From sequence record OP172784: DNA of 64,000 nucleotides. One strand, 5' to 3'. The position numbers were made by a program, and so were the translations under genes. Under the pieces are notes generated by a model, which was not told the DNA's origin, made no database searches, and saw nothing but the letters and a program-made list of their open reading frames with translations. Position 1 is the stretch's first letter. Every line of letters starts with the position of its first letter. This document shows positions 22,917 to 23,861 of the stretch, piece by piece. Source of the stretch: Escherichia phage ECO07P1.

Positions 22917-23013
22917 ATATGCTTTAAGAATTATTTGTTATTATTAACTCATATCACACTGATTAATACCCTCTATCATCAAGGGTTCTTGCTTGAGAGC
23001 CTTTGTTAATAAT

Positions 23014-23086
23014 TGGGAATTAGCCAAGTTGGTAAGGCACTGGATTTTGATTCCAGGATGCAAAGGTTCGAGTCCTTTATTCCCAG
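23014..23086 (+). tRNA. tRNA-Gln (anticodon UUG)
   Basis: Manual cloverleaf: acceptor tgggaat/attccca, anticodon loop ttTTGat, T-loop GTTCGAG. Confidence 0.85.
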
Positions 23087-23087
23087 C

Positions 23088-23174
23088 GCGAGAATGGTCA
23101 AATTGGTAAAGGCACAGCACTTAAAATGCTGCGGAATGATTTCCTTGTGGGTTCGAGTCCCACTTCTCGCACCA
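23088..23174 (+). tRNA. tRNA-Leu (anticodon UAA)
   Basis: Acceptor gcgagaa/ttctcgc, anticodon loop ctTAAaa, long variable arm, encoded CCA. Confidence 0.85.
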
Positions 23175-23179
23175 AATTT

Positions 23180-23253
23180 GCGGATATCGTATAATGGCAT
23201 TACCTCAGACTTCCAATCTGATGATGTGAGTTCGATTCTCATTATCCGCTCCA
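23180..23253 (+). tRNA. tRNA-Gly (anticodon UCC)
   Basis: Acceptor gcggata/tatccgc, anticodon loop ctTCCaa, T-loop GTTCGAT, CCA. Confidence 0.85.
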
Positions 23254-23263
23254 ATTTAATTTA

Positions 23264-23337
23264 CTCCGTGTAGCTCAGTTTGGTAGAGCGTCTGCTTTGG
23301 GAGCAGAATGTCGCAGGTTCAAATCCTGCCGCGGAGA
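23264..23337 (+). tRNA. tRNA-Pro (anticodon UGG)
   Basis: Anticodon stem tctgc/gcaga, loop ttTGGga; T-loop GTTCAAA. Confidence 0.8.
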
Positions 23338-23339
23338 CT

Positions 23340-23429
23340 GGAGGCGTGGCAGAGTGGTTTAATGCACCGGTCTTGAAAACCGGCAGTCGCTCCGGCGACT
23401 CATAGGTTCAAATCCTATCGCCTCCGCCA
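23340..23429 (+). tRNA. tRNA-Ser (anticodon UGA)
   Basis: Acceptor ggaggcg/cgcctcc, loop ctTGAaa, long variable arm, CCA. Confidence 0.85.
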
Positions 23430-23434
23430 GTTTT

Positions 23435-23510
23435 GCTGATTTAGCTTAGTAGGTAGAGCAACTCACTTGTAATGAGAAGGTCGGCGGTTCGATTCCGTCA
23501 ATCAGCACCA
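23435..23510 (+). tRNA. tRNA-Thr (anticodon UGU)
   Basis: Acceptor gctgatt/aatcagc, loop ctTGTaa, T-loop GTTCGAT, CCA. Confidence 0.8.
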
Positions 23511-23511
23511 A

Positions 23512-23586
23512 GGCCCTGTAGCTGGAAGGTTCAAGCAAGCGACTCATAATCGCCAGATGGTGGTTCAATTCCACCCAGGGCCACCA
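23512..23586 (+). tRNA. tRNA with CAU anticodon (Ile2-type or Met; T4 tRNA-Ile has CAU)
   Basis: Acceptor ggccctg/cagggcc, loop ctCATaa, T-arm ggtgg-ttcaatt-ccacc, CCA. Confidence 0.75.
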
Positions 23587-23599
23587 AATTAAGAATTAA

Positions 23600-23686
23600 G
23601 GGGAGTTATCCCGTAGAGGTAGCGGTGTGGACTGTAAATCCATTGTCATTGCGACTCGGGTGGTTCGACTCCATCACTCCCCACCA
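23600..23686 (+). tRNA. tRNA-Tyr (anticodon GUA)
   Basis: Acceptor ggggagt/actcccc, anticodon stem gtgga/tccat, loop ctGTAaa, long variable arm, CCA. Confidence 0.8.
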
Positions 23687-23690
23687 ATTT

Positions 23691-23765
23691 GGATGTGTAG
23701 CTCAATGGCAGAGCGATCGCCTGTTAAGCGATTGGTTATAGGTTCGAATCCTATCACGTCCGCCA
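23691..23765 (+). tRNA. tRNA-Asn (anticodon GUU)
   Basis: Anticodon stem atcgc/gcgat, loop ctGTTaa, T-arm atagg-ttcgaat-cctat, CCA. Confidence 0.8.
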
Positions 23766-23769
23766 AATC

Positions 23770-23845
23770 CGAGGCATAGCTCAGAAGGAAGAGCAAGGAC
23801 CTTCTAAGTCCTAGGTCGTAGGTTCGATCCCTACTGCCTCGACCA
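23770..23845 (+). tRNA. tRNA-Arg (anticodon UCU)
   Basis: Acceptor cgaggca/tgcctcg, anticodon stem aggac/gtcct, loop ctTCTaa, CCA. Confidence 0.85.
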
Positions 23846-23861
23846 ATTAAGTGAGGAAAAT

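Follow-up and report, generated by a model that had tools for sequence, protein, structure and literature searches.

The ten-gene tRNA array of Escherichia phage ECO07P1 compared with the tRNA operons of T4, T2, T6 and RB14

In the T4 genome annotation, the transfer RNA (tRNA) operon holds eight tRNA genes, none of them for Tyr or Asn, and the GIY-YIG homing-endonuclease gene segB lies between tRNA-Ile and tRNA-Arg. When the corresponding region was sequenced in T2L, RB1 and RB3, it was found to be without segB and to contain Met(CAU), Tyr, Asn and Arg tRNA genes together with two open reading frames (ORFs) (Brok-Volchanskaya et al. 2008, PMC2330249). The preferred SegB cut site is inside the T2L tRNA-Asn gene, and in T4 × T2L crosses 94% of the progeny inherit segB, while about 1250 bp of T2L DNA coding for the Met, Tyr, Asn and Arg tRNAs is excluded (PMC2330249). 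Here, we examine the tRNA genes in a stretch of 64,000 nucleotides (nt) from Escherichia phage ECO07P1 (OP172784), referred to below as the window, in which an original prediction made from the sequence had proposed a ten-gene array that includes Tyr(GUA) and Asn(GUU). The locus is very probably a segB-free (T2/RB14-type) allele of the Tequatrovirus tRNA operon, with tRNAs that would serve both supply and anti-defence roles.

The tRNA operon and segB

Exactly ten tRNA genes were called by ARAGORN over the whole 64-kb window, all on the + strand between positions 23014 and 23845, and a cloverleaf was drawn for each (10/10). They are arranged in the order Gln(UUG), Leu(UAA), Gly(UCC), Pro(UGG), Ser(UGA), Thr(UGU), CAU, Tyr(GUA), Asn(GUU) and Arg(UCU), with spacers of 0, 5, 10, 1, 5, 1, 13, 4 and 4 nt. 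In an independent covariance-model search with Rfam RF00005, the same ten genes exceeded the gathering score of 29, nine of them at 59.3–74.1 bits (E-values of 1e-10 to 1e-14). The isotypes, their order and spacers of 0–13 nt are all as folded by hand in the original prediction. Its range of 22981–23850 encloses the genes but also takes in 33 nt of upstream spacer and 5 nt downstream. It named covariance-model scores below threshold for Tyr or Asn as what would refute it; tRNA-Asn has the best score in the array (74.1 bits), and tRNA-Tyr passes narrowly (30.2). CCA is encoded in eight of the ten genes, the exceptions being Gln and Pro. The features of the locus are as follows.

23014..23087, + strand: tRNA-Gln (UUG); 67.4 bits; CCA not encoded (3′ CGC); RB14 allele; 65/74 identical to T4
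23088..23174, + strand: tRNA-Leu (UAA), class II; 59.3 bits; CCA encoded; 87/87 identical to T4, T2 and T6
23180..23253, + strand: tRNA-Gly (UCC); 63.3 bits; CCA encoded; 73/74 identical to T4
23264..23338, + strand: tRNA-Pro (UGG); 70.2 bits; CCA not encoded (3′ CTG); 62–63/75 identical to T4, T2 and RB14
23340..23429, + strand: tRNA-Ser (UGA), class II; 62.6 bits; CCA encoded, where T4 has TAA
23435..23510, + strand: tRNA-Thr (UGU); 71.7 bits; CCA encoded; 72/76 identical to T4; bases 36–41 UAAUGA
23512..23586, + strand: CAU tRNA, T2/RB14 allele; 59.9 bits; CCA encoded; most likely tRNA-Ile2
23600..23686, + strand: tRNA-Tyr (GUA), class II, phage type; 30.2 bits; 86/87 identical to T2 and 85/87 to T6
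23691..23765, + strand: tRNA-Asn (GUU); 74.1 bits; 75/75 identical to T2 and RB14; bases 36–41 UAAGCG
23770..23845, + strand: tRNA-Arg (UCU), T2/RB14 allele; 68.1 bits; 75/76 identical to T2 and 49/76 to T4
23862..24212, + strand: ORF of 116 amino acids, phrog_3355 (unknown function), between tRNA-Arg and rnaD
24205..24328 (5′ limit approximate), + strand: rnaD homologue (T4 stable RNA species 2); 107/125 identical to T4
24335..24473, + strand: rnaC homologue (T4 stable RNA species 1); 136/139 identical to T4
24524..24557, + strand: terminator-like G+C-rich hairpin (10 pairs, 24524–24547) followed by a T-run; conserved in T4, T2 and RB14

The array lies downstream of genes 1, 57A and 57B, the internal-protein genes and trna.4/trna.2, and upstream of rnaD/rnaC and the terminator, a placement that agrees with the annotation of T4, RB14 and T2. 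The alignment with T4 has 94–97% identity over 19901–23531, which includes gene 1, 57A, 57B, trna.4, trna.2 and the first six tRNA genes, and again from 24212 on; the T4 ipI and trna.3 stretches are without a full counterpart in the window. It ends at 23531, approximately 20 nt into the CAU gene, and picks up at 24212, the start of the rnaD homologue. The segment between, 23532–24211, has no counterpart in T4, which there has the rest of tRNA-Ile, segB and tRNA-Arg, while the window has Tyr and Asn between CAU and Arg tRNA genes unlike those of T4, followed by the 116-amino-acid ORF. The CAU and Arg alleles share only 47/75 and 49/76 positions with their T4 counterparts. Compared with T2, the CAU, Tyr, Asn and Arg genes are identical at 75/75, 86/87, 75/75 and 75/76 positions, and the same four values were obtained with RB14. 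The difference from T4 is accordingly the replacement of a cassette rather than the insertion of two genes.

When relatives were sought, the region proved to be 96–98% identical to many Tequatrovirus genomes, and the whole array is 99.3% identical to that of phage Jbel. The annotations of RB14 (FJ839692) and Nami list these ten genes in this order. At least 80% of the array is held in one piece by 397 phage records and the Tyr–Asn pair is found in 433, while T4 segB is found in 126. Given these counts, the ten-gene form is the common one among the sequenced relatives and the eight-gene set of T4 the minority. ECO07P1 does differ from T4 at this locus, as had been predicted, but the repertoire is not the distinguishing mark it was taken for: it is the majority form, long annotated in RB14 and Nami and by now in hundreds of GenBank phage records, and its counterparts in T2L, RB1 and RB3 were published in 2008 (PMC2330249). 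The array is therefore already described and holds no new biology, and the literature of 2008 and 2026 already explains the Tyr/Asn difference from T4, by segB homing and, for Tyr, by anti-defence. As a marker, the locus is useful: it assigns ECO07P1 to the T2/RB14 class of Tequatrovirus, which is free of segB.

No segB was found in the 64-kb window using tblastn with T4 SegB at E-values up to 1. The sequence GATTCGAAC, on the complement strand in the T-arm of tRNA-Asn (23742–23750), fits RAWTSGAAC, the motif reported for SegB (PMC13096335). If the T2L and T2 Asn genes are taken as the same, the Asn gene in the window appears to hold the preferred SegB site. As this gene is identical to that of T2 and carries GATTCGAAC, the locus can be read as a recipient allele of the known homing system. 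In T6, Tyr and the 4-nt spacer are still homologous to the window, the homology ends exactly where Asn would start, and the segB cassette is next. A blastn-short search beside segB in T4 and T6 found no Asn remnants, only generic motifs of 8–13 nt. Under this reading, T4 would be without Tyr and Asn because segB occupies that position, and co-infection with a segB-positive phage should lead to conversion of the CAU–Tyr–Asn–Arg block to the allele of that phage. We predict that in mixed infection a segB-carrying relative overwrites the locus.

Identity of the tyrosine and CAU tRNAs

The RF00005 match to tRNA-Tyr has an E-value of 0.028. In the ARAGORN drawing the D-stem is irregular (U·G / C-G / C·C / C-G), and the C·C mismatch in this stem explains the low score. 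A score so near the threshold, a stem with both a C·C mismatch and a U·G pair, and the fact that homologous stretches in KMB20 and Ro121c4YLVW were not called by ARAGORN would suit a decaying or non-functional tRNA-like sequence, but other evidence makes this highly improbable. We aligned 12 sequences, namely E. coli tyrU and 11 phage or plasmid genes, with homologues drawn from T2, T6, Vequintavirus, Felixounavirus, the T5-like Epseptimavirus, Jiaodavirus, a Schitoviridae phage and an E. coli phage-like plasmid. Under the ARAGORN structure, 90.9% of cells are paired, compared with 48–58% when the partners are slid, and two-sided changes were found in 12 pairs; the observed values were reached by 0/500 shuffles. 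The acceptor, anticodon, variable and T helices, in which the 12 compensatory pairs are located, are 90–100% paired, and the D-stem is the sole weak helix (64.6%). As the C·C mismatch is kept in 11/12 sequences, and with it the D-arm across phage families, it is a conserved trait of phage-type tRNA-Tyr rather than a sign of decay. The encoded CCA, the discriminator A73 and the GUA anticodon loop are all intact. Finally, the T6 gene, 85/87 identical to that in the window, yields a tRNA that is detected by northern blot, is active in vivo and rescues infection (PMC13096335). Decay of the tRNA-Tyr gene is thereby largely refuted.

The window tRNA-Tyr differs from that of T2 at one position and from that of T6 at two. 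It has C40, forming a G-C pair, where RB14, T2 and T6 have U40 in a G·U pair, and its variable arm is made up of the pairs G46-C56/U47-A55/C48-G54. The phage-type tRNA-Tyr, with its D-stem region at 23609–23625, is only 58/87 identical to E. coli tyrU. Relatives of the phage type, with 80–96% identity, are spread across Straboviridae, Vequintavirus, Felixounavirus, T5-like phages and Schitoviridae, and are also found in E. coli plasmids of approximately 110 kb, e.g. pEC881_2. The tRNA that follows Tyr is annotated as Thr in pEC881_2 and was called Ile(GAU) in phage KMB20; an anticodon switch of an Asn homologue was considered and rejected, as the pairwise identity of only 51/76 is that of generic tRNA similarity. 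When 23505–23860 was searched against Rfam with a permissive E-value, the extra matches were only artefacts of tRNA shape, namely a tRNA-Sec match on Tyr (34.4 bits, below its threshold of 47) and Plastid-ycf2 matches antisense to the CAU and Arg genes.

The tRNA with the CAU anticodon had been predicted as either Ile or Met. The anticodon is as predicted, and the ambiguity resolves towards tRNA-Ile2. The CAU tRNA is 58/76 identical to E. coli ileX and 51/77 to metT, and its bases 28–42 are identical to those of ileX. Among 5,426 E. coli genomes, the top matches are all annotated as tRNA-Ile, with 81.6% identity. The top match is a prophage gene that adjoins an antiterminator Q gene. The ARAGORN drawing contains C4-G69 and C5-G68, which we take to be the TilS determinants that separate tRNA-Ile2 from tRNA-Met (U4-A69, A5-U68). 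These determinants were reportedly defined by Ikeuchi et al. in 2005. In the codon counts given in the next section, AUA is enriched 5.3-fold in the phage relative to E. coli and AUG is not (0.86-fold). An elongator tRNA-Met is quite unlikely on this evidence, and the RB14 annotators also chose Ile. Nonetheless, without modification of C34 a CAU anticodon reads AUG, the gene matches T4 tRNA-Ile at only 47/75 positions, and it is labelled Met by ARAGORN, in the T2 and Nami annotations and in the 2008 report (PMC2330249). We conclude that the CAU tRNA is most likely tRNA-Ile2, which would read AUA after lysidine modification.

Proposed roles of the phage tRNAs in supply and defence

Codon usage in 83 non-overlapping window ORFs, which total 17,911 codons, was compared with that in E. 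coli K-12, sampled as 42 annotated genes with 14,790 codons. Within the window, a late block of baseplate and tail genes (558–17934, − strand) was compared with mainly early genes on the + strand. For eight of the ten tRNAs the codon read ends in A, as in AUA and AGA, and all eight codons are enriched in the phage: AGA (8.7-fold), AUA (5.3), UCA (3.7), GGA (3.5), ACA (3.4), UUA (2.8), CAA (1.5) and CCA (1.4). The frequency of these A-ending codons in the late block is approximately double that in the early genes. These eight tRNAs would have the classical role of topping up translation. Tyr(GUA) and Asn(GUU) add no decoding capacity, but would raise the supply for Tyr (1.72-fold) and Asn (1.64), which with Lys (1.69) are the three amino acids whose usage most exceeds that of E. 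coli.

It had been suggested that the repertoire reflects the codon demand of AT-rich late genes, and the proposed check of Tyr and Asn frequencies in late genes against the host agrees with this. TAT is enriched 2.45-fold and AAT 3.30-fold, and in the late block Asn and Tyr reach 71.8 and 47.9 per 1000 codons, the values for E. coli being 37.6 and 26.0. The third enriched amino acid, Lys, has no phage tRNA here, and the late block is not enriched for it (50 per 1000 codons versus 46 in E. coli); in the mainly early genes on the + strand, Lys stands at 90 per 1000. Demand can therefore reasonably explain part of the picture, including the absence of a Lys tRNA. However, that Tyr and Asn tRNAs are kept only for the high usage of an AT-rich phage, especially in its late structural genes, is doubtful. 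The aligned shared flanking genes are about 96% identical in T4, so that demand there should be nearly equal, yet T4 manages without both tRNAs, and T6 has Tyr but not Asn. The presence or absence of Tyr and Asn follows segB and not composition. Furthermore, the GUA and GUU anticodons add no decoding beyond that of the host's own tRNAs, the enriched TAT and AAT codons are read by wobble, and experiments point to an anti-defence benefit of Tyr (PMC13096335). On these grounds, demand is not the whole story.

The experiments in question concern Septu (PtuAB). In T6-infected cells it cuts the variable arm of tRNA-Tyr at C48/A49 (PMC13096335). Overexpression or amplification of T6 tRNA-Tyr restores plating of T6, which becomes more sensitive when its tRNA region is deleted (Chihara et al. 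2026, PMC13096335). T4, which has no tRNA-Tyr, cannot escape Septu, and T2 is resistant (PMC13096335). Rescue of infection by phage tRNA-Tyr extends to PtuAB-type nucleases, including that of retron-Eco7 (PMC11555353, PMC13096335). A second system, PARIS, has the nuclease AriB, which cuts tRNA-Lys(UUU), Thr(UGU) and, more weakly but with a biological effect, Asn(GUU), and infection is rescued by the T5 versions of the targeted tRNAs (PMC12409363). The AriB cut falls between positions 40 and 41 in a U36-A-A-U-C context, and in tRNA-Lys a change of U39 abolishes cleavage and a change at position 41 inhibits it (PMC12409363).

The window tRNAs are kin to these. Its tRNA-Tyr is that of T6 at all but two positions, with an identical variable arm, including C48, and its Asn(GUU) and Thr(UGU) are isoacceptors of AriB targets. 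Positions 36–41 of the window Asn are UAAGCG, compared with UAAUCC in the E. coli target, so that G39 and G41 replace U39 and C41; for Thr, the window has UAAUGA and E. coli thrU has UAAUCA. By analogy with near-identical or similar phage tRNAs, Tyr would buffer against Septu and the PtuAB of retron-Eco7, and Asn against PARIS AriB, as would Thr. Besides a phage-like plasmid, no fewer than five unrelated phage families have near-identical phage-type tRNA-Tyr genes, which suggests selection beyond the codon usage of any one phage.

That anti-defence is the main role, with Tyr and Asn (and Thr) forming a cassette of spare parts against the nucleases of Septu, retron-Eco7 and PARIS, can be put forward tentatively. 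It draws on the rescue experiments with tRNA-Tyr, on the standing of tRNA-Asn(GUU) as a biologically relevant secondary target of AriB, and on the differences at positions 39 and 41 of the window Asn, two positions at which changes in tRNA-Lys block or inhibit cleavage. The AriB determinants were mapped on tRNA-Lys, however, and may not transfer to Asn, and many hosts are without Septu, retron-Eco7 and PARIS. Several further points weigh against the reading of the locus offered here. T6 tRNA-Tyr is itself cut by Septu at C48, so that its protection is a matter of dose and not of resistance; at normal gene dose T6 is only partly protected, and protection is full only when the gene is amplified (PMC13096335). 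The resistance of T2 to Septu (PMC13096335) may have a cause other than its tRNA-Tyr. As the T4 tRNA region is non-essential on laboratory hosts (PMC2330249), the fitness effect of either role may be small. Nor was a transcription start located: sigma-70-like sites in the promoter search numbered 9, and 8.4 were expected from shuffles.

A stronger form of the anti-defence proposal, namely that the T-even tRNA-Asn is a nuclease-resistant variant, its UAAGCG disrupting the UAAU|C context on which AriB acts in the E. coli tRNA, and that the Tyr–Asn(+Thr) cassette competes with segB for the locus, is on balance unlikely. If it were true, homing of segB through T-even populations would strip recipients of part of their anti-defence repertoire, and the SegB-driven amplification of Tyr in T6 would be a secondary compensation for that loss. 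Possible protection by the T-even tRNA-Asn against PARIS-type nucleases is a point of some interest. From the presence of tRNA-Tyr, ECO07P1 is predicted to tolerate the tRNA-Tyr-cleaving defences Septu and retron-Eco7 better than T4.

The predicted transcription unit, its neighbours and counterparts in other phages

In T4, multi-tRNA precursors are matured by host RNase P and 3′ exonucleases. If the window follows T4, the ten tRNAs would first be part of polycistronic precursors, from which host RNase P and 3′ trimming enzymes would release them. As the other eight genes encode CCA, only Gln and Pro would depend on the CCA-adding enzyme of the host. The relevant 3′ ends lie at 23084–23090, 23335–23341, 23424–23429 and 23581–23586. 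An encoded CCA is missing from Ser (TAA) and Ile (TAT) of T4 as well; because the Ser and CAU genes in the window do encode it, the window allele should need less host 3′ repair or CCA addition than that of T4. The hairpin and T-run at 24524–24557 are the probable end of the tRNA/stable-RNA transcription unit. Upstream of tRNA-Gln, the MotA-box-like TGCTTGA at 22990–22996 was rejected as a promoter, as no properly placed −10 element follows it. The rnaC homologue holds a tRNA-like T-arm, CCGGGTTCGAATCCCGG, and no Rfam family reached its gathering threshold over the rnaC and rnaD homologues in the window.

Several small ORFs surround the array. T2 also has the 116-amino-acid ORF, and T4 and RB14 lack it at that site. 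The rnaD homologue starts at the stop codon of this ORF or only a few nt away, and the ORF is within the block reported as excluded by SegB homing (PMC2330249). Upstream of the tRNAs, three small + strand ORFs (21446–21718, 21779–22087 and 22158–22382) start with MKTFKEFINEAA or MKTCKKFIVEA. These starts resemble the T4 capsid-targeting sequence and the ORFs match PHROG internal head or virion protein families; they are the hypervariable internal-protein locus of T-even phages. Downstream of rnaC, an ORF of 187 amino acids (24642–25205, + strand) that starts with MKTYAEFLTEAA matches only phrog_2280, annotated as 'unknown function', and may be a further unannotated internal protein. For the trna.4-like, trna.2-like, 116- and 187-amino-acid ORFs, PHROGs returned only 'unknown function'. 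The trna.4 homologue (22444–22626) abuts the trna.2 homologue (22629–22916), and the 411 bp trna.3 of T4 (72918–73328 in T4) is missing at the junction, 22626–22629.

The Gln and Pro alleles differ from those of T4 mainly in their stems. The changes are concentrated in the anticodon stem in Gln (65/74 identical) and in the anticodon, T and acceptor stems in Pro (62/75), and both alleles still fold as standard cloverleaves in ARAGORN. The Gln anticodon loop has U32 and U38 in the window and in E. coli, and C32 and C38 in T4. As RB14 has the Gln allele of the window but the Pro allele of T4, the cluster is a gene-by-gene mosaic. In T6 (AP018814), Pro and Ser are missing, and the gene annotated as 'tRNA-Thr' (4643–4722, minus strand) has the 5′ end of tRNA-Pro, CTCCGTGTAGCTCAG, in front of the body of Thr, with two acceptor strands unable to pair. 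It resembles a chimera left by a deletion and probably has no function.

Taken against the described operons, the window shares with T4 its genomic position, flanking genes, rnaD/rnaC and terminator, together with the Gln–Leu–Gly–Pro–Ser–Thr order at 83–100% identity per gene, Pro being the lowest. T4 differs in that it has Ile–segB–Arg, with its own Ile and Arg alleles and without Tyr or Asn, and in that it has trna.3. T2 (AP018813) is segB-free like the window, and its CAU (labelled 'Met'), Tyr, Asn and Arg genes each differ from those of the window by 1 nt at most. The same 116-amino-acid ORF follows Arg in T2, with rnaD and rnaC downstream. However, T2 has an ORF of 133 amino acids where the window, T4 and RB14 have tRNA-Thr, and so has nine tRNAs to the window's ten; its Gln and Pro are 66/74 and 63/75 identical, and its rnaD is divergent in the centre. 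RB14 and many other Tequatrovirus isolates (ime09, Nami, Jbel and others) have the same order and isotypes as the window. Seven of the RB14 genes are identical to those in the window, and Thr and Arg are each 75/76 identical, but its Pro is 62/75 identical and the 116-amino-acid ORF is not present after Arg.

T6 is a hybrid, with T4-type Ile, Tyr, segB and T4-type Arg. Its Tyr is in the same place as in the window, after the CAU tRNA, and has the same variable arm, including the cleaved C48; segB stands in place of Asn, and Pro and Ser are deleted. As the window is without segB, SegB-driven amplification of Tyr would be unavailable to it in cis. In the T5 family, tRNA-Tyr acts against retron-Eco7 (PMC11555353) and tRNA-Lys, Thr and Asn act against PARIS (PMC12409363); the window lacks tRNA-Lys. 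Unlike the T-even type, which is cleaved, T5 tRNA-Tyr is reportedly resistant, owing to a variable loop of distinctive form (PMC13096335). The tRNA-Tyr of the T5-like phage SB9 nevertheless belongs to the same phage-type family as that in the window, with approximately 85% identity, and the anti-defence tRNAs of the T5 family are, like those described here, phage copies of tRNAs that host nucleases destroy.

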